Assembly (NCBI GenBank): GCA_036786805.1
Contig: DAIQQM010000002.1
Coordinates: 1-53,467 of the forward strand
Reading direction: 5' to 3'
Source: Candidatus Dormiibacterota bacterium
GTDB lineage: Bacteria > Chloroflexota > Dormibacteria > Aeolococcales > Aeolococcaceae
Length of the DNA stretch: 53,467 nucleotides
Under the pieces are notes generated by a model. That model searched no databases and had not been told where the DNA came from. It was given only the letters and a program-made list of their open reading frames with translations. The position numbers and the translations under genes were made by a program. Below, in pieces: positions 2,955 through 43,966 of the stretch (position 1 is the stretch's first letter; each line of letters opens with the position of its first letter).

Positions 2955-3533
2955 GTGAGCTCACCGTCCGACGCCACGCCCATCCTCGGACAGGGCGATC
3001 GAGTGTGGCTGCGCAAGCTGCGCTCCGAGGACGAGGACGCGTTTCTCAGGATGGTCGCCGCGAGCCGTTCGCTGCACCACCCGTGGACGCGCCCGCCGGG
3101 CGACGCTGAGGGCTTTCGCGCACTGGTCGCGCGCGGCGGCGGCGGCGACCTGGTCTCACTCGCCGGCTGGCGAGCCGCCGACAACACGCTGGTCGCCATC
3201 GTGAACCTCGGCCAGATCGTTCGTGGCCTCTTCCAGAGCTGTTACTGCGGCTTTTACGCCAACGCCACCACCGCCGGCCGGGGATTCACGCGCGAGACCC
3301 TCCAGCTCGCGCTGCACCACGCGTTCAGCGTCCTGGGCCTCCATCGCGTGGAGGCGAATGTGCAGCCCGGCAACGCGGCGTCACTCGCCCTGGTGCGCCG
3401 TGTCGGGTTCCGCCGTGAGGGGTTTTCGCCCCGCTACCTCCACATCGACGGAGCCTGGCGTGACCACGAGCGGTTTGCGATCACCGTTGAGGACTGGCTG
3501 CAGATGCAGTCAGCGCCTTCCGACACGACGTGA
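2955..3533 (+). CDS. GNAT family N-acetyltransferase (RimJ/RimL-like)
   Basis: The C-terminal ~190 aa of the 308-aa ORF read as GNAT ([28 protein letters not shown]). The upstream part overlaps acdS on the opposite strand. Start is uncertain: GTG at 2955 or GTG at 3003. Confidence 0.7.
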
Positions 3534-3536
3534 GCA

Positions 3537-4061
3537 TCACGCAACGGCGACTCGACCGCGTGCCCGGGCCGGCGTCCGCATCTGCGTCAACGAGACCCCG
3601 ATGCCGTAGGTGAGGAACTCGCCGATCGGCGCGAGCTCGACCAGTGCAGCCGATTCGCGCCGATCGGGCGGCAGGAGCGACCCCAGGCGCGCGAGCACCG
3701 GGATCACCTCGGGCGCGCCGGCCGGATGCACCACCGCCTTGGCGTGAAAGCTGATCGTCGCCGGTGGGATGGGGATGAGCAGCGTGAGCAGGCCGCCCTT
3801 ACGCACCGGCACCGTCACCGACACCCGCCCGCTCGCCGCGATGTGCCGAGCCTTCCAGCTGTCCGGCGCCACCGCCGCATAGAGGCGATGGTCGAGCGCC
3901 TTGAAGACGACGCCACTCGACCTCGGCTCTCCCTCCGGCGTCGTGTAGCCGAGCACCGCAAACGAGGCCCGCTCGAGCTCGTGCCAGACCAGCTCTGGAG
4001 ACAGGTTCGGGTTCGCCCCTCCCATCTCGTGCTTCTCGATATCGCTCACCAAGGTCGTCAT
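3537..4061 (-). CDS. Pyridoxamine 5'-phosphate oxidase (PPOX)-family / FMN-binding split-barrel protein
   Basis: ATG at 4059-4061 has AGGAGG 7 nt upstream. The sequence (ELVWHELERASFAVLGYTTPEGEPRSSGVVF...) is typical of the PPOX-like family. Confidence 0.6.
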   Translation of the reverse strand: MTTLVSDIEKHEMGGANPNLSPELVWHELERASFAVLGYTTPEGEPRSSGVVFKALDHRLYAAVAPDSWKARHIAASGRVSVTVPVRKGGLLTLLIPIPPATISFHAKAVVHPAGAPEVIPVLARLGSLLPPDRRESAALVELAPIGEFLTYGIGVSLTQMRTPARARGRVAVA

Positions 4062-14449: not shown

Positions 14450-14525
14450 CCCAGGGTAGCCAAGTGGTCAAGGCAGCGGTCTGTAAAACCGTGTACCGAT
14501 GGTTCGACTCCATCCCCTGGGACCA
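14450..14525 (+). tRNA. tRNA with GUA anticodon (Tyr by anticodon), 76 nt, 5-nt variable loop, encoded CCA
   Basis: Hand fold: acceptor CCCAGGG/CCCTGGG, D arm GCCA-AGTGGTCA-AGGC, anticodon arm GCGGT-CTGTAAA-ACCGT, variable GTACC, T arm GATGG-TTCGACT-CCATC, discriminator A, then CCA. Confidence 0.8.
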
Positions 14526-31880: not shown

Positions 31881-31941
31881 TCGAGATCAAATCGGCCGTA
31901 CCCGCACGGGGAGTCGAACCCCGGTTACCACCTTGAAAGGG
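31881..31941. repeat. att repeat (tRNA-proximal), forms the 3' part of the intact tRNA-Glu
   Basis: It matches 22861-22921 with 2 mismatches, including a 47-bp perfect core. Confidence 0.85.
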
Positions 31942-31970
31942 TGGTGTCCTGACCGCTAGACGATGCGGGC
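31899..31970 (-). tRNA. tRNA-Glu (UUC anticodon)
   Basis: The reverse complement folds as GCCCGCA-TC-GTC-TAGCGGTCAG-GAC-A-CCACC-CTTTCAA-GGTGG-TAAC-CGGGG-TTCGACT-CCCCG-TGCGGGT-A. CCA is not encoded. Confidence 0.9.
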
Positions 31971-38066: not shown

Positions 38067-38192
38067 TGACGTGTTTCAACCTTCGTCTTAATACCTCCGC
38101 GCCGAGATGAAAGTCGGCGTGTCGTCACGGCGCCGCGAGGCCGTGTTCACAGAGTTCACACCGGCGTGAGGCGTCCGCATACGATTCCGCCG

Positions 38193-38936
38193 GTGTGCAC
38201 GATCCTCCTTGCCTGGAGATGCCACCCCGCCGCGCCGATCGTGCTCGCCGCAAACCGCGATGAACTCATTGCCCGCCCAAGCGCACCGCCCGGGCCGCTC
38301 AGCTCCGACCCGCTGATCCTCGGGGGGCGCGACCTCGTCGCCGGCGGGACCTGGCTGGCCGTGGCCGCGGACGGCAGGGTCTGCGCCGTGACCAACCGGC
38401 ATCCCACCGAAGGTCCACCGCTCCCGCCCGATCCCTCACGCCGCTCCCGGGGCGAGATCGCGGTCTCGCTGCTCGCCGCCGATCCTGCGGAGATCCCAGG
38501 CTGCCTTGCCGGTCTTGGACCCGGGCGCTACAACCCGGTCAACGTGCTCTGGTTGAGCGCGGACCGAGCACTCGTCGCTCATGTCGACGACTCCGGCCCG
38601 GTGCGCGTGGTCGACCTGAACCCGGGGCACCACGTGCTCACCACCCGTGACGTCGACGACGCGAGCAGCCCGAAGGTGGCCATGCTCCTGGCCGCGATGG
38701 ATCGTACGCTCGCACACGATGGCGATCCCGACGCGACCCTGACCGGGCTGCGCGCGATGCTCGCCGGCCACACGTCGGCGAGTGATTCGCCGGTGGACGC
38801 GGCCTGCATCCATGGTGATGTGTACGGGACGGTGTCGGCGTCGACAGTGATGGCTGGAGCCGGGCGAATCGTCTACGAGCACGCGCCCGGCCGCCCATGT
38901 GTCACGCCGTTCGCGAGAGTGCCGATCGCGCCCTAG
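38193..38936 (+). CDS. NRDE family protein (DUF833/TANGO2-like)
   Basis: It begins VCTILLAW... and contains the literal LAANRDE motif. Start is GTG 38193 or ATG 38166. Confidence 0.7.
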   Translation: MCTILLAWRCHPAAPIVLAANRDELIARPSAPPGPLSSDPLILGGRDLVAGGTWLAVAADGRVCAVTNRHPTEGPPLPPDPSRRSRGEIAVSLLAADPAEIPGCLAGLGPGRYNPVNVLWLSADRALVAHVDDSGPVRVVDLNPGHHVLTTRDVDDASSPKVAMLLAAMDRTLAHDGDPDATLTGLRAMLAGHTSASDSPVDAACIHGDVYGTVSASTVMAGAGRIVYEHAPGRPCVTPFARVPIAP

Positions 38937-40591
38937 TGGCCAGTCCCGAGCTGTACCGCCTTGACCAGCAGGAGAAGGACCGCGAGCACGAGATAGGCGC
39001 GCATGGAATACAGCGCGACGAGCCGGCTGCGTGACTGCTCGGGGCGCGTCAGCAGCGCCAGCGGCGGCATACGCCACGTCTCACGATCCTCGTCCTCGAA
39101 TGCCTCGGCCGGCCGTGCGCGCGTACCACGGGTGGTGAAAACGGTGATGCCGACCAGCGCAGCCAGCATCACCACGCTGAGGATGGCGAGCAGGAGCGGG
39201 ACGTTCACCGATGAGAACACGGTGGTCACGACCAGGATGAGCGACAGCATAACCAGGATGCCGAGGATCAGTGTCGCGACGATGTTCAACCATGGCCGAT
39301 TCACCCACGGACCGAGCACCTCGCGGTCGTTGCAGAGGAGGAGCAGGAAGAGACTTGCGCTGGGCAGTAACACGCCTGCCAGGGCCTGCACCGCGGTGGT
39401 GATCAATCCGAGCGGCGCGTTGGGAAACAGCGTCAGCCCGGCGGCAAGCACGACCAGCGCCGTGAACGTCGCATAGAACGGCTTGGCCTCCCGCCACGAG
39501 CGGTGCAGCGAGTGCCGGATGCCGAACGTGTCACCGAATGCATAGGACGTCGCCAGGGTCACGGCACTCGCACCGATGATCGACGCGTCGATGAGCAGGA
39601 CGGCGAACAGAGCACCGGCCGCAGAGCCGAGATGGTGCGCGATCCCGGACGCAACGGTTCCGGCATTGACGAACTGCCCCGCAAGCGGGGTGCTCTGGAA
39701 GGCGAATGCCGTCGTGATCATGATCGCAGTGGCGCCGACAACGACGACGAATGCGCCGATGACCGTATCGGCTCGCTCGTACGGGATCCATCGCGGTGTG
39801 ATGCGCTTGTCGACGACGTTGCTCTGCTGGAAGAAGAGCTGCCACGGCGCGACGGTCGTTCCGACGATGGCGATGATAAGGAGCACGCCGTTGGACGTGA
39901 GGCCAGACGTCGCGCCCTCCTTCATGCCCGGGATGACGAGGTCGTGCGCCACCTGACCGATGTTCGGGTGACTCAGGATCACCAACGGGATGATCAGGAG
40001 GTTGCCGAAAAGGATCACGAACATGAGCCGCTCCCATGTCTCGAAACGGCCCGTCACGGTGATTCCAATGAGCAGGAGTCCCGCGAGCGGCACGGCGAGA
40101 TATGGGGTGACGCCGAAGTACGAGGCGCCCAGCGAGATGCCGATGAATTCGGTGGCGATGGTGAGGAAGTTGAGGATGAACAGGTCGCCGACGCTGAACC
40201 AGCCCCAGAAGCGGCCGAACCGCTCGAAGATCAGCCTGCCGTGCCCGACCCCGGTGACCGCACCGAGGCGAACCACCATCTCCTGGTTGACGATCAGCAC
40301 CGGGATGAGGAACACGAGCGTCCAGAGCAGGCTCGTGCCGTAATTCTGTCCGGCCTGGGCGTAGGTGGCGACACCACCGGCATCGTTATCGCCGACCATC
40401 ACGATGAGGCCGGGACCCATGATCACGGCAAGGGCGAGGAGTCGGCGGCGCCATGTGCGCGGTGTGTTCGAGTCGTGCTCGCCGATCGTCCCGAAGGCGC
40501 CGCGGATGTCTCCGAGGTGTGCGGCATCAAGAACCGCCGTGTTGCCGCGCGCCACCTCGGCGTCGGCCTTGCGAGCCTTCTCCTGCGCCAA
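38933..40591 (-). CDS. NRAMP/SLC11-family transporter, paralog 1, non-canonical metal site (NRMT-like)
   Basis: TTG start. The TM1 motif is GDNDAGG in place of the canonical DPGN. The TM6 motif is GTTVAPWQLFFQQS in place of the canonical A-x-x-MPHN-x-x-LHS. It is 11-12 TM with a C-terminal extension. Confidence 0.85.
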   Translation of the reverse strand: MAQEKARKADAEVARGNTAVLDAAHLGDIRGAFGTIGEHDSNTPRTWRRRLLALAVIMGPGLIVMVGDNDAGGVATYAQAGQNYGTSLLWTLVFLIPVLIVNQEMVVRLGAVTGVGHGRLIFERFGRFWGWFSVGDLFILNFLTIATEFIGISLGASYFGVTPYLAVPLAGLLLIGITVTGRFETWERLMFVILFGNLLIIPLVILSHPNIGQVAHDLVIPGMKEGATSGLTSNGVLLIIAIVGTTVAPWQLFFQQSNVVDKRITPRWIPYERADTVIGAFVVVVGATAIMITTAFAFQSTPLAGQFVNAGTVASGIAHHLGSAAGALFAVLLIDASIIGASAVTLATSYAFGDTFGIRHSLHRSWREAKPFYATFTALVVLAAGLTLFPNAPLGLITTAVQALAGVLLPSASLFLLLLCNDREVLGPWVNRPWLNIVATLILGILVMLSLILVVTTVFSSVNVPLLLAILSVVMLAALVGITVFTTRGTRARPAEAFEDEDRETWRMPPLALLTRPEQSRSRLVALYSMRAYLVLAVLLLLVKAVQLGTGH

Positions 40592-40776
40592 TTCGGACCT
40601 CCCACCGTCGATGACGGCAAGACTGAGCGGGCCTGTCCGCTCAGGAGGTCACGAATGCTTTCGCTACCTCGCTGCGGGCCGGCCCGTACGTTGCCGGGAC
40701 CGGGGACTGTCGCCGCCGTCCATATGTGATTCCCTCCACCCCGAGAACGAGGTTTGTCGTTGTTCGAAAGTGTACA
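40592..40776 (-). promoter_or_regulatory. Conserved 5' leader, copy 1: candidate riboswitch with RBS-sequestering expression platform
   Basis: It is near-identical to 42489-42670. On the RNA, GACCUCC (complement of 40644-40650) pairs with the RBS GGAGGUC (complement of 40596-40602). This helix encloses hairpins at 40624-40643 and 40605-40617. A TGTACACT -10-like box lies at 40769-40776. Confidence 0.5.
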
Positions 40777-40826
40777 TCCCGCGCGACCGCGGCTTCGCAA
40801 GGCCCTTCGCGCAGCCGAGGCCGCGC

Positions 40827-42488
40827 CTAGTGTCCACCGTGAGAGGCGAGGATGGTCTTGACGAGCAGGCTCACCATCGCCACGATCGCATAACCTCGCA
40901 CCGAGCACAGCGCGATGAGCCGCCCGCGCGACTTGACGGGCTGTTCGAGCAGGGCGAGTGACGGCATTCGCCAGGTCTCGCGGTCCTCGTCCATTCGCGG
41001 GTCACGAGGTCGCTCGCGCCGCGAGCGAACGTTGATCACGATCGCGATCACCAACCCGACGATCATCACGGCGGTGAGCACAAGGAACAGTTCCGCGACG
41101 TCGATGCCGGGAAGGATGGTCGACACCACGAGGATGACCGAGAGGATCAGAAGCACACCGAGGACGAGCGACGCGAGCAGGTTGAACCACGGACGGTTGA
41201 CCCAGGGACCGAGCACGTCCCGGTCGTTGCAGAGAAACAGCAGGAAGAGACACGCGCTCGGCAGCATGACTCCGGCCAGCGCCTGCACCGCCGTCGTCAC
41301 CAGGCCGAGCGGCACTCCGGGAATGAGCACGAACACAGCGGCCAGCGTCACGATCACCGTGAACGTCGCGTAGAAGGACTTCGCCTCGCGCCATGAGCGA
41401 TGCAGCGAATTCCTGATGCCGAATGTGTCACCGAACGCATAGGACGTGCACAGCGTCACAGCACTCGCGCCGACAACCGAGGCGTCGATCAGCAGGATCG
41501 AAAAGATCGCGCCCACCGCCGGTCCGACGCGCGCCTTGAGGGCGTTGGCAAGGTCAAAGGCGTTGGTGAAGGCGTTCGGATTGTTCTGTCCACCACCGGT
41601 GCGACTGAAGGCGAATGCGGTCCCCACCATGATGGCGGTCGCACCGATGACCACCACCATTGCGCCGATCACGGTATCCGCCCGCTCGTATGGAATCCAG
41701 CGAGGTGTGATGCGCTTGTCCACAACATTGGATTGCTGAAAGAAGAGTTGCCAGGGGGTGACCGTCGTCCCGACGATGGCGACGATGAGGAGCACGCCGT
41801 CGGACTTGAAGCCTCCCTCCACACCGGGGATGACGAAGTGCTGCACGACAGGCCCAAGCGTTGGATGGCAGAGCAACATCAGCGGGATGCACAGGAGATT
41901 TCCGAAGAGGAGGACGAACATCAGCCGCTCCCACGTCTCGAAACGGCCGGTGACCGTGATGCCGACGAGGACGAGTCCGGCAAGTGGCACGGCAACCCAC
42001 GCGGGCACTCCGAAATACTGAGCGCCGAGCGAGATGCCGATGAACTCGGTGGCGATCGTGAGGAAGTTGAGAACGAAGAGATCGCTCACGGCGAACCGGC
42101 CCCAGATCTTGCCGAACCGCTCGAAGATCAGCCGTCCATGCCCGACGCCGGAGACAGCGCCGAGGCGCGCCACCATCTCCTGGTTGACGATGAGCACCGG
42201 AATGAGCAGGAGCAGGGTCCAGAGCAGGCTCGTTCCGTAGTTCTGCCCGGCTGCCGCGTATGTCGAGACCCCACCGGCGTCGTTGTCCCCGACCATCACG
42301 ATGAGGCCGGGTCCGACGATCACGGCAAGAGCGAGCAGCCTGCGACGCCACGACCGCGCAGCGGAGGGGTCGTGCTCGCCGATCGTGCCGAAGGCACCGC
42401 GAATATCGCCGTGATGCGCGCCGTCCACGGTGATCTTCGGACCGGTCGACGGCTTGGCGGCCGTCTTGCGAGCCTTCTCCTGCGCCAA
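40827..42488 (-). CDS. NRAMP/SLC11-family transporter, paralog 2, non-canonical metal site (NRMT-like)
   Basis: Tandem paralog of 38933-40591, with high protein identity by eye. It has the same TTG start context, GDNDAGG, and GTTVTPWQLFFQQS. Confidence 0.85.
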   Translation of the reverse strand: MAQEKARKTAAKPSTGPKITVDGAHHGDIRGAFGTIGEHDPSAARSWRRRLLALAVIVGPGLIVMVGDNDAGGVSTYAAAGQNYGTSLLWTLLLLIPVLIVNQEMVARLGAVSGVGHGRLIFERFGKIWGRFAVSDLFVLNFLTIATEFIGISLGAQYFGVPAWVAVPLAGLVLVGITVTGRFETWERLMFVLLFGNLLCIPLMLLCHPTLGPVVQHFVIPGVEGGFKSDGVLLIVAIVGTTVTPWQLFFQQSNVVDKRITPRWIPYERADTVIGAMVVVIGATAIMVGTAFAFSRTGGGQNNPNAFTNAFDLANALKARVGPAVGAIFSILLIDASVVGASAVTLCTSYAFGDTFGIRNSLHRSWREAKSFYATFTVIVTLAAVFVLIPGVPLGLVTTAVQALAGVMLPSACLFLLFLCNDRDVLGPWVNRPWFNLLASLVLGVLLILSVILVVSTILPGIDVAELFLVLTAVMIVGLVIAIVINVRSRRERPRDPRMDEDRETWRMPSLALLEQPVKSRGRLIALCSVRGYAIVAMVSLLVKTILASHGGH

Positions 42489-42670
42489 TTCGGACCTCCC
42501 ACCGTCGATGACGGCAAGACTGAGCGGGCCTGTCCGCTCAGGAGGTCACGAGTGCTTCGCTACCTCGATGCGGGCCGGCCCGTTAAGTTGCCGGGACTGG
42601 GGACTGCCGCCGCCGTCCATGTGTCAGTGCCTACACCCCACAAATACGCTTGCCGGACTGGGAGTGTACA
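42489..42670 (-). promoter_or_regulatory. Conserved 5' leader, copy 2: candidate riboswitch
   Basis: An 87-bp run (42465-42551) is identical to 40568-40654. The next ~75 nt differ only by a few substitutions and two 1-nt indels. The TGTACACT box is conserved at 42663-42670. Confidence 0.5.
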
Positions 42671-42697: not shown

Positions 42698-43966
42698 TCA
42701 GTCCGCGTCGGCCTCCGCACGGCGCCGCCAGGAATTGGGCAGCATCGCCTCGAGCACGTCGTCGACGGTGATGACACCGATGACCCGGTCATCGTCGTCG
42801 AGCACCGCGACGACGGTGAGGTTGAAGTCGGCCATGCGGCGCGCGACCTCAGGGAAGTCGTCGTCGACATGTATCGACGCGTTGCTGTGCTCGACGAGCT
42901 CGGAGATTTTCATCGCGCCGTCCGCGCGGAGCAATTCGAGCAGCGGCACCGAACCGGCGAGATGTCCGTCGTCCACCAGGAACACGTCGGCGACGACCTG
43001 GGGCAACAGGTCGGCGCCGCGAACGGCGGCAAGCGCGTCCGCGACGGTCGCGTCGGGAGCGACCGAGACGAAGTCGGGGCTCATGAGTCCGCCTGCGCTG
43101 CTCTGGCCGTAGCTGAGGAGCGCGCGCACCTTCGCCTGCTGCGTGGGCGGGAGCAGCGAGAGAATCGGCGCGCGGCGCGGCTGATCCAGCTCCGTCACGA
43201 GGTCGGCCGCGTCGTCGGGGCCCATCTCCGCGAGGACCGCGGCCGCCTCGGCGTCCGACTTGTCACGGAGAAACTCAACCTGGTGCTCGGTGTTCAGCTC
43301 CTCGAACACGTCGGCCTCGAGCTCGGGGTCGCCGTGAACGGCCGAGATGATCTCCTCACCCTCGTCGTGCGAGGCCGCCTCGACCAGGTCGGCGATCTGG
43401 GCGGGATGCAGACGGCGAAGGCGCCGCAGCGGCATCAGCAACCGCGATGTCGGGACGTGTCCGACGAACGGCTCGACGGCCGCCCAGTCGACGAATCCCT
43501 GGTTCTCACCGCGACCACCGAGCAACCGGCCGCGCCAACCTCGGGGACGCGTGTCGACGCCCGCGACGACCCATCGCGAGTCCTCCTCGCGCAACTCGAT
43601 GTCGTGTGCGACCACGAGCCGGCCGGCGTCGACGCTGATGAGACGGCGACCGAGCACGTCGTCCCCGAGCAGCACCTCTCCCTGCCGCCGCTCGAAATGG
43701 GCGAGGTTGAGGTCTTCACCGGCGAGCTGCACGCTGCCCGGTTTCATGGCCGCGATCCGGTCGCGCGGAATGAAGAGCTTCCTCCCCGCGATGCGGCCGA
43801 CGAGGCCGGTGACGGGCGGATACCCGCCCTCGGCGAAGCGGGCGATGACGTCGTCAACCCGGCCGAGCCGGCCCCCTGCTCGATCGACGAGGGGGCTGTG
43901 GAGGATCCCGGTGAGCGCCAGCCGGACCGATTCGGTGGCTGGCTCCCCGGCGTCTGAGGTCGACAT
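42698..43966 (-). CDS. Soluble PRC-barrel / MgtE N-terminal domain / tandem CBS protein (no membrane domain)
   Basis: The MgtE_N-like region is EELNTEHQVEFLRDKSDAEAAAVLAEMGPDDAADLVTELD. A CBS pair follows (GLMSPDFVSVAPDATVADAL...; VVAVLDDDDRVIGVITVDDVLEA). The protein ends right after CBS2, where MgtE would continue into 5 TM helices. Confidence 0.8.
   Translation of the reverse strand: MSTSDAGEPATESVRLALTGILHSPLVDRAGGRLGRVDDVIARFAEGGYPPVTGLVGRIAGRKLFIPRDRIAAMKPGSVQLAGEDLNLAHFERRQGEVLLGDDVLGRRLISVDAGRLVVAHDIELREEDSRWVVAGVDTRPRGWRGRLLGGRGENQGFVDWAAVEPFVGHVPTSRLLMPLRRLRRLHPAQIADLVEAASHDEGEEIISAVHGDPELEADVFEELNTEHQVEFLRDKSDAEAAAVLAEMGPDDAADLVTELDQPRRAPILSLLPPTQQAKVRALLSYGQSSAGGLMSPDFVSVAPDATVADALAAVRGADLLPQVVADVFLVDDGHLAGSVPLLELLRADGAMKISELVEHSNASIHVDDDFPEVARRMADFNLTVVAVLDDDDRVIGVITVDDVLEAMLPNSWRRRAEADAD

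Follow-up and report, generated by a model that had tools for sequence, protein, structure and literature searches.

Two NRMT genes are preceded by twin leaders

The window analysed in this work is the whole stretch of 53,467 nucleotides of contig DAIQQM010000002.1, assigned to a Candidatus Dormiibacterota bacterium; the genomes nearest to it are metagenome-assembled genomes of Candidatus Dormibacterota. On its minus strand lie, in this order, a gene for a protein with MgtE_N and CBS domains and two paralogous genes of the NRAMP family, which we named NRMT-A and NRMT-B (Table 1). Each of these two NRMT genes is preceded by a leader of about 170–185 nt, and these leaders, which we propose to be translational regulators of Mg2+ import, are the subject of this study.

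The initial annotation had described the two genes as NRMT-like transporters in a Mg2+ context, and our searches bear this out. Both products match PF01566 (NRMT-B at 4e-73), and the best match of the window transporters in the PDB is EleNRMT of Eggerthella lenta (7QIA; 190 bits, E=6e-55), while MntH-type chains score at most 53 bits. In addition, both paralogs carry DAGG in transmembrane segment 1 (TM1), and TM6 harbours TTVA in NRMT-B and TTVT in NRMT-A. The combination of DxxG in TM1 with TxxA/T in TM6 marks Mg2+-transporting NRMTs, whereas DxxN-AxxM is the signature of NRAMPs (PMC8806188). Because of this signature, together with the preference for EleNRMT over MntH, we classify both window genes as NRMT-type Mg2+ transporters.

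By aligning the two leaders, we could confirm with both of its ends the long identity noticed earlier: positions 40568–40654 and 42465–42551 form an exactly identical run of 87 nt that extends no further on either side. Identity is 92.7% over the 3' 150 nt of the leaders, compared to 72.5% for the DNA of the coding sequences (CDSs), 84% for the best 150-nt CDS window and about 70–71% for the proteins. Farther 5', the leaders diverge until they reach a common TGTACACT box. These figures support the initial impression that the leaders are more constrained than the adjacent coding DNA.

Homologous loci were then collected in three ways. A protein-guided scan of species-representative genomes yielded at least 80 loci, kept among hundreds; a gene-agnostic DNA pattern for the 3' platform described below, run on metagenomes, returned 43 loci, 42 of them 5' of NRMT genes and one a false positive; and look-ups of individual homologues added further loci. 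The same leader stands 5' of orthologues in the genome-derived loci L001–L006 and L008 and in the metagenome loci L081–L134, so that it is not an artefact of recent duplication. Three leader types can be distinguished in Dormibacterota: type 1, which is that of the window; type 2, which resembles the leader of L005 and precedes NRMTs 62–66% identical to the window protein; and type 3, found in L007 and L064. The leader set comprises 48 unique leaders of types 1 and 2 plus the two type-3 variants, that is 50 leaders. In type 3, an additional GC-rich stretch of roughly 150 nt (L007 ~3660–3890, L064 ~3290–3520) intervenes between the -10 box and the upstream open reading frame (uORF) presented below.

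Over their whole length, orthologous leaders are 81–89% identical between genomes and the A and B leaders of the window 86%, the proteins in these comparisons being 68–92% identical. Because the A/B identity falls within the range found between orthologous leaders, we read the twin likeness as strong purifying selection on an element that would predate the A/B duplication, with at most little gene conversion; gene conversion as the sole cause was rejected on the same ground. It is very improbable that the likeness is a mere by-product of recent duplication or gene conversion devoid of any regulatory role. The exact identity of the 87-nt run would suit such an origin, as would the fact that the window B leader is slightly closer to window A (86%) than to orthologous B leaders (81–82%). 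However, the paralogs are much less alike as proteins, dozens of genomes and metagenomes have the same leader 5' of orthologues in one or two copies, and the 87-nt platform is nearly invariant throughout, with compensatory changes in one of its hairpins (hairpin 2, see below).

The TGTACACT box at the 5' end, proposed earlier as a shared -10-like box and present in both copies, contains TACACT (TANNNT) and is invariant in 25/25 type-1 leaders; types 2 and 3 have TGGTAGACT, GGTACAAT or GGTAGAAT in its place. For copy B, the putative transcription start lies near 40762, about 6–8 nt 3' of the box. A scan with the sigma-70 consensus gave no promoter match in the leaders, and the promoter is therefore deduced from conservation only. 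Likewise, a scan of the leaders for intrinsic terminators found none, so that control is presumably translational. Finally, the minimum free energy of single sequences was not significantly better than that of shuffled ones (z = -0.8 and -0.7), a comparison that is uninformative at 68% GC; the support for structure is therefore comparative and not thermodynamic.

The leaders end in a conserved platform that would hide the ribosome-binding site

The 3' part of each leader folds, by comparative prediction, into a three-way junction. The Shine-Dalgarno sequence (SD) GGAGGUC, located 4 nt 5' of the TTG start, pairs with an upstream anti-SD GACCUCC, and this helix encloses the hairpins UGAGCGG/CCGCUCA (hairpin 1) and GCCGUC/GACGGU (hairpin 2). 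We evaluated these helices in 32 distinct homologous leaders. First, the seven pairs of the anti-SD:SD helix are all invariant (7/7) and 100% paired. Second, hairpin 1 is 98.6% paired, with a nearly invariant stem and a loop that varies. Third, hairpin 2 shows two compensatory pairs, one changing from C-G to U-A in 11 leaders and the other from U-A to C-G in 8 and to U-G in 6. All parts of the three-helix platform sequestering the ribosome-binding site (RBS), as described in the initial annotation, are present, and the comparison indicates that this platform is real and conserved.

The Dormibacterota leaders match no known RNA family

The M-box had been considered as the prior candidate for the leaders, with yybP-ykoY and NiCo as further families to check. 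None of them was matched. With cmscan and Rfam 15, no leader family reached the gathering score anywhere in the window, and at E<=10 the 351-nt windows around each leader gave no M-box, yybP-ykoY, NiCo or other relevant match, the matches obtained being to unrelated families at chance level (E 0.46–3). The gathering-score search also covered 15 related loci, in which M-boxes were the sole relevant family. Both type-3 loci, L007 and L064, had no match at that level, and L007 had none at E<=10 either, while four Acidimicrobiia orthologue loci (L037, L044, L046 and L048) displayed the M-box RF00380 at 115–123 bits. A divergent M-box was rejected, as the very search that gave these scores in Acidimicrobiia returned nothing at E<=10 in the window leaders. 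It is hardly credible, then, that the leaders belong to a divergent M-box or to another known metal riboswitch: the Mg2+-transporter gene context and the M-boxes 5' of the Acidimicrobiia orthologues would fit this idea, but the absence of cmscan matches, which extends to M-box, yybP-ykoY and NiCo in L005, L007 and L064, speaks against it.

A conserved uORF occupies the upstream part of the leader

The riboswitch postulated in the initial annotation is borne out in its platform, in the constraint on the leader and in its Mg2+ context but not as an M-box, and the block upstream of the platform that had been taken as the sensor is better read as a conserved short leader ORF. First, its ATG is kept in 48/48 unique leaders of types 1 and 2 and in both type-3 leaders. 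Second, its stop lies 12–16 nt 5' of the anti-SD in 44 of the 48 leaders although the codon itself changes (20 TAG, 27 TGA including all of type 2, and 1 TAA); type-1 stops are mostly TAG, with one TGA clade and one TAA, and in L109 and L127 TGG is directly followed by TGA. Third, the uORF is 19 codons long in 25 leaders and 32 codons long in 17, and the 39-nt length difference between types 1 and 2 is in frame. The predicted peptides read MDGGDSPQSRQLTGRPxSR in type 1 (19 codons), MEDGDSRRSGAPSTS...GV in type 2 (32 codons) and MDDGESPQPRPRGG...LTS in type 3 (21 codons), each followed by the stop. Types 2 and 3 (GAGGU-N5-AUG), like the B copies, have a properly spaced SD 5' of the uORF.

Acidic and small residues (Asp/Glu, Gly/Ser) and Pro predominate in the N-terminus (MDGGDSP, MEDGDSR or MDDGESP, that is M-D/E-D/G-G-D/E-S-P), and the wobble base of codon 5 (position 15) takes C, U, G or A while the residue remains Asp or Glu. 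We described this composition by three features: D/E at residue 2, at least two D/E in residues 2–6 and at least three D/E/P in residues 2–7. All three are combined in about 1% of the ATG/GTG frames of the 68%-GC window; the uORFs of all three Dormibacterota types have them, as do those of Solirubrobacterales presented below.

The end of the uORF is predicted to compete with the SD for the anti-SD

The last sense codons of the uORF contain GAGGU in type 1, GGGGUC in type 2 and GGAGGU in type 3, each complementary to the anti-SD. In 32 leaders, the GAGGU:anti-SD helix is 99.4% paired, with an A-U to G-U change in 12. RNAalifold predicts this helix for types 1 and 2, its inner extensions differing by clade (GCGA:UCGU, CACG:CGUG or GAC:GUC), and constrained folds with either the SD or the mimic paired to the anti-SD lie about 2–6 kcal/mol apart in five leaders. 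Another partner of the GAGGU region in copy B, the 8-bp AACCUCGUU:AGCGAGGU, was dropped because it is not conserved, most leaders having AACCAC. Inside the uORF, type 2 has a covarying hairpin domain with 3 compensatory pairs, and types 1 and 3 have a GGAC/GUCC hairpin with a conserved loop, the type-1 hairpins being short and nearly invariant. The architecture of these hairpin domains is not conserved between leader types.

Three features expected of a leader-ORF attenuator of the mgtL/mgtQ kind are found here: a conserved start and stop, with an SD in types 2 and 3 and in the B copies and a weak or distant one in type-1 A copies; predicted mutually exclusive helices that overlap the uORF, one of them masking the downstream SD; and an N-terminus of D/E/P and small residues against a background of about 1%. 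On balance, each leader is probably a uORF-based translational attenuator of an NRMT-type Mg2+ importer. By comparison only, we established which elements the leaders contain and how well these are conserved, the helices in competition, and the genes as those of Mg2+ transporters; we infer that the uORF is translated, in which direction the switch works and that Mg2+ is its signal.

The proposed attenuator would work as follows. From 5' to 3', the leader would present its own -10 box, the uORF, the GAGGU SD mimic, the anti-SD, the two hairpins, the SD and the TTG. In the OFF fold, the anti-SD would pair with the SD in the three-way junction and hide the RBS. In the alternative (ALT) fold, which is mutually exclusive with it, GAGGU would take the anti-SD and the SD would be released. 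A ribosome reading the uORF to its stop would cover GAGGU, its footprint ending just short of the anti-SD, which could then close on the SD and shut the gene off. A ribosome stalling or dropping off within the first ~7 codons would leave GAGGU free to capture the anti-SD, so that the SD would be open and the transporter made. The N-terminal EPDP of MgtL aborts translation more at low Mg2+, and small residues and short nascent chains favour abortion (bioRxiv 10.1101/2021.02.02.429294). Because acidic N-termini are reported in this MgtL literature to destabilise the ribosome more at low Mg2+, and the acidic residues of MgtQ to have the like effect, the acidic small-residue nascent chain of the uORF would likewise favour early drop-off when Mg2+ is low. 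The link to Mg2+ gains strength from the true M-box present in four Acidimicrobiia orthologue loci; it was by its association with M-boxes, an “MgtE-associated branch” included, that NrmT was first found (PMC4072509).

Leader ORFs in Solirubrobacterales and, possibly, in Acidimicrobiia

In 20 orthologue loci of Solirubrobacterales (Actinomycetota), we found a uORF that has a strong SD, with GAAAGGAGG 6 nt upstream. It starts with ATG in 16 loci and GTG in 4, and ends with TAG, TGA or TAA. The predicted peptide is MDREQPRSTQPAAR... (MDREQPRS...), with variants that include VDADSEPRSTTPVAR, and is likewise acidic and Pro- and Ser-containing at its N-terminus. Synonymous changes (GAC/GAT, CCA/CCG, GCA/GCG, CGC/CGT) and in-frame indels leading to 19, 22, 23 or 24 codons make it hard to read otherwise than as coding. 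No description of this leader ORF was found in the searchable literature. Its CGA-AGU codons are invariant, and an internal CGCACGC pairs with a downstream GGCGUGCGC in the RNAalifold prediction.

In Acidimicrobiia, about 250 nt 3' of each of the four M-boxes, there is AAGGAG-N5-6-CUG followed by an open frame with wobble-like variation, a second conserved element that may be a CUG-initiated leader ORF. It includes a GCGCGCACGCC...GGCGUGCGCGC pairing. In these four loci as well as in L059, which was left out of the Rfam scan, the frame ends near GAGGU, and this is followed by GACCUCC or GGCCUCC and then by GGGAGGUC. Judged by the order of these motifs, the layout is the same relay as in the window. 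The second element also stands without a detected M-box in other loci, among which L027, L045, L049, L054 and L069 were scanned.

Weighing the leader-ORF attenuator against other explanations

Several observations weigh against the leader-ORF attenuator. First, the variants do not all have the expected shape. In copy A, a 1-nt insertion shifts the uORF out of the frame of the family consensus; residue 5 is Gly and not Asp, which leaves a single acidic residue in its N-terminus MDGGGSP, and the stop falls on the anti-SD. Copy B has a canonical uORF and a stronger SD. Seven independent assemblies (L128–L134) share exactly the copy A insertion, and an assembly error was rejected on this basis; the two paralogs may be regulated differently, or the copy A uORF may be decaying. 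Moreover, type-1 A copies are devoid of a normally spaced uORF SD, having GGGGUG 14–15 nt 5' of the ATG, and the uORFs of type 3 and of Solirubrobacterales run through the anti-SD. Since the copy A, type-3 and Solirubrobacterales uORFs end on or run through the anti-SD, one simple switching logic cannot fit all variants.

Second, the uORF evolves only weakly like a coding sequence. The extra alleles at codon positions 1/2/3 number 8/8/12 over 11 codons in Dormibacterota and 5/6/8 in Solirubrobacterales, in both cases a weak position-3 excess that is not decisive for coding. Third positions are often fixed (GGC, AGU), and in its middle the uORF changes as an RNA hairpin with compensatory pairs and not as a peptide. 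Also, frames easily stay open at 68% GC: in at least 12/25 type-1 leaders a second one runs from a GTG at -88 to a stop at -1, and an open frame alone was for this reason rejected as evidence.

Third, the direction of the switch can be argued both ways. In partition-function folding of 11 leaders with a simulated ribosome placed at initiation, at codons 5 and 8 or at the stop, the accessibility of the SD followed no consistent trend, so that the sign of regulation is not derivable from it. The M-box of Mycobacterium tuberculosis pe20 has newly been described to control a conserved uORF through a translational platform (PMC12810186); by analogy, the M-box context in Acidimicrobiia could imply that translation of the uORF means ON.

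Some of these observations would suit a riboswitch of a new class, made of RNA alone and responding to Mg2+ or some other ligand. The block from GGGGUG to GAGGU would then be the aptamer, its folding would determine which of GAGGU and the SD takes the anti-SD, and the AUG and its frame would be incidental or secondary. The strong nucleotide conservation, synonymous positions included, and the AUGGAnGnCGGCGAnAGU common to types 1–3 point that way, as do the hairpin with 3 compensatory pairs inside the type-2 uORF, the GGAC/GUCC hairpin of types 1 and 3, the lack of peptide conservation past about residue 11 and the tolerance of copy A to a frameshift. There is also a precedent in the Salmonella mgtA leader, which has been presented as an RNA that senses Mg2+ and also as the site of mgtL (recounted in PMC4072509). 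Nonetheless, we hold this class to be unlikely. No Rfam family matches; from type to type the putative aptamer has very different lengths and sequences, and what stays constant are the AUG, the acidic codons and the position of the stop; a loop triplet would not be expected to swap one stop codon for another in a fixed place; and orthologues in another phylum have an unmistakably coding uORF. A combination of RNA and uORF sensing, as in the mgtA leader, is possible by analogy.

The platform could also be worked by a trans factor, such as an RNA-binding protein (possibly linked to MgtE_N-CBS), a small RNA (sRNA) or Rho, or be a constitutive damper or thermosensor. In favour of this, the platform is invariant across all leaders while the part upstream of it varies, the CGGCAAC motif is repeated in the 5' region and the uORF, the C-rich, G-poor stretch CAGUCCCCAGUCCCGGCAAC could load Rho, and the MgtE_N-CBS gene is a constant neighbour. 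But the conserved AUG, the position of the stop and the acidic N-terminus would be left unexplained, and no candidate sRNA was seen. To our knowledge, MgtE_N and CBS domains are Mg2+- or nucleotide-sensing modules of transporters and have no known RNA binding, which counts against such a factor as well. We therefore regard control in trans as quite improbable, and retain the leader-ORF attenuator as the preferred explanation.

Comparison with known leader-ORF systems

The closest parallels to the proposed attenuator are found in leaders of enterobacterial Mg2+ transporter genes. In mgtQ of Salmonella, Asp2 and Glu5 are required, and stems 1:2 and 3:4 compete with stem 2:3 to mask the mgtB RBS (PMC8092293). 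The Dormibacterota leaders resemble mgtQ in that a short ORF whose residues 2 and 5 are acidic (M-D2-G-G-D5 or E5) lies directly 5' of a Mg2+ transporter gene, in having alternative stems of which one masks the downstream RBS, and in purely translational control, here presumed. The placement between genes of one cluster is also shared, as copy B lies between NRMT-A and NRMT-B. In contrast, inspection shows no sequence homology, the ORF has 19–32 codons instead of 8, and the gene downstream is an NRMT (SLC11 family) in Dormibacterota instead of a P-type ATPase in Enterobacteria. Also, the RBS-masking helix closes a three-way junction and the uORF ends in an SD mimic, features known here from sequence alone.

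MgtL, the peptide of the enterobacterial mgtA leader that acts by intrinsic ribosome destabilisation (Chadani et al.), has in common with the uORF a D/E/P-rich stretch right after the initiator Met, in a leader ORF 5' of a Mg2+ importer gene. There, abortion within the first ~6 residues, enhanced at low Mg2+, switches the downstream RNA fold, and the same is proposed here. The output differs, MgtL acting on Rho-dependent transcription termination whereas the attenuator would sequester the SD, and so does the peptide: MgtL starts with MEPDPT and window-type uORFs with MDGGDSP, so that Gly and Ser, not Pro, stand between the acidic residues. By inspection, the likeness is compositional only, which makes the uORF an analogue and not a homologue of MgtL.

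The M-box (RF00380) regulates the same transporter family, NrmT (Shin et al. 2014, PMC4072509), and in four Acidimicrobiia orthologues it stands 5' of a similar layout of uORF, anti-SD and SD. The window leaders, however, have no M-box match at any threshold and measure about 170 nt in total, expression platform included. Finally, in the ermC and cat attenuators the position of a ribosome on a short leader ORF likewise decides the state of an SD-hiding hairpin; these sense antibiotics by nascent-chain stalling, whereas the context here is a Mg2+ transporter and an acidic N-terminus.

Features of the locus and neighbouring genes

The coordinates of the features discussed above are given in Table 1.

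Table 1. Features of the window (strand indicated) and of related loci (prefix L, coordinates within each locus)
Feature	Location	Strand	Evidence
NRMT-B, NRAMP-related predicted Mg2+ transporter paralog, 552 aa	38933–40591	minus	PF01566, 7QIA match, DAGG + TTVA
NRMT-A, predicted paralog, 553 aa	40827–42488	minus	PF01566, DAGG + TTVT
Gene for soluble MgtE_N + CBS protein without membrane domain	42698–43966	minus	PF03448 + PF00571
Copy B -10-like box TGTACACT	40769–40776	minus	invariant in type-1 leaders
Copy B putative uORF, 19 codons, MDGGDSPRSRQRTGRPAAR then stop; ATG (40723) to TAG (40664); GGAGGG (40732–40737) 8 nt 5' of ATG	40664–40723	minus	conserved ATG + stop position
Copy B SD mimic GAGGU (last sense codons + first stop base), complementary to ACCUC	40666–40670	minus	alternative helix
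Copy B anti-SD GACCUCC	40644–40650	minus	invariant pairing with SD
Copy B hairpin 1, UGAGCGG-acaggc-CCGCUCA	40624–40643	minus	98.6% paired
Copy B hairpin 2, GCCGUC-auc-GACGGU	40604–40618	minus	two compensatory pairs
Copy B SD GGAGGUC (40596–40602), 4-nt spacer and TTG (40589–40591) of NRMT-B	40589–40602	minus	conserved helix
Copy A -10-like box TGTACACT	42663–42670	minus	conservation
Copy A putative uORF, 24 codons, MDGGGSPQSRQLNGPARIEVAKHS then stop; ATG (42620) to TGA (42546); stop overlaps GUGACCUCC	42546–42620	minus	reading frame
Copy A SD mimic GAGGU	42562–42566	minus	alternative helix
Copy A anti-SD GACCUCC	42541–42547	minus	helix with SD
Copy A hairpin 1 (42521–42540) and hairpin 2 (42501–42515)	42501–42540	minus	comparative pairing
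Copy A SD GGAGGUC (42493–42499) and TTG (42486–42488)	42486–42499	minus	conserved helix
Solirubrobacterales leader ORFs, ~160–290 nt 5' of the NRMT start, first ten loci	L009, L012–L015, L017, L019, L024, L032, L035		
Solirubrobacterales leader ORFs, ~160–290 nt 5' of the NRMT start, last ten loci	L036, L041, L043, L051, L056, L062, L067, L071, L075, L077		
Acidimicrobiia M-boxes	L037 3570–3737; L044 3576–3758; L046 3581–3751; L048 3577–3744		RF00380

The pair formed by an MgtE_N-CBS gene and an NRMT gene recurs in loci of Dormibacterota, Solirubrobacterales, Acidimicrobiia and Chloroflexota. The MgtE_N-CBS gene also lies at 1025–2293 in L124 and 1123–2391 in L128, and 5' of NRMT in many of the loci L009–L080. 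In the window, a -10-like TGGCAGACT ends 9 nt 5' of its ATG, a spacing that may leave its mRNA almost without a leader. A search of the window 5' of this gene for an M-box or another leader found none. Its product may serve the transporter as a detachable gate that senses Mg2+. In L023, L025, L034, L053, L065, L070, L073 and L080, which belong to some Dormibacterota and Chloroflexota relatives, NRMT follows MgtE_N-CBS almost without spacer and without leader. The leader with its own promoter therefore appears as a lineage-specific insertion between the two genes.

The C-terminal ~95 residues of both NRMT paralogs (38933–39215 and 40827–41112) exceed the region aligned with EleNRMT (query residues 49–458). 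This extension contains one more hydrophobic segment and the motif R-E-T-W-x-M-P...LL, which does not vary among 12 diverse homologues. A gene of the TANGO2 family (PF05742) is convergent to NRMT-B and overlaps its end by a few bases in all close relatives (window 38166–38936 region on the plus strand, L124 4144–4893, L125 4147–4788, L128 6153–6862). Two tRNA genes, at 14450–14522 (plus) and 31899–31970 (minus), are the sole Rfam matches at gathering level in the window.

Implications for magnesium sensing

Only tentatively do we extend these findings beyond the window, to a multi-phylum and so far undescribed family of ribosome-based Mg2+ sensors, in which a relay of SD mimic, anti-SD and SD would gate NRMT translation, or else to a covarying RNA domain within the uORF that would be a new Mg2+-sensing aptamer. 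The N-termini of this proposed family would be M-D/E-x-D/E/G-x-S/P in Dormibacterota and MDREQPRS in Solirubrobacterales, and members behind the Acidimicrobiia M-box may possibly be CUG-initiated. By analogy, such a family may be the convergent counterpart, in uncultured soil lineages, of enterobacterial MgtL and MgtQ.

So far, the way in which ribosome instability induced by the nascent chain controls Mg2+ import has been worked out in enterobacteria only, with mgtL and mgtQ, and elsewhere the M-box is the paradigm. The leaders also carry a caution for riboswitch hunts, as a conserved and structured SD-sequestering leader can conceal a translated uORF, which happened historically with the mgtA leader. 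If our explanation is true, the leaders would be compact, testable switches of about 170 nt and the first regulatory element described for Dormibacterota. Conserved leader ORFs with an acidic N-terminus 5' of the NRMT genes of Dormibacterota and Thermoleophilia would then show that the use of the ribosome as a Mg2+ sensor is general and has evolved repeatedly.

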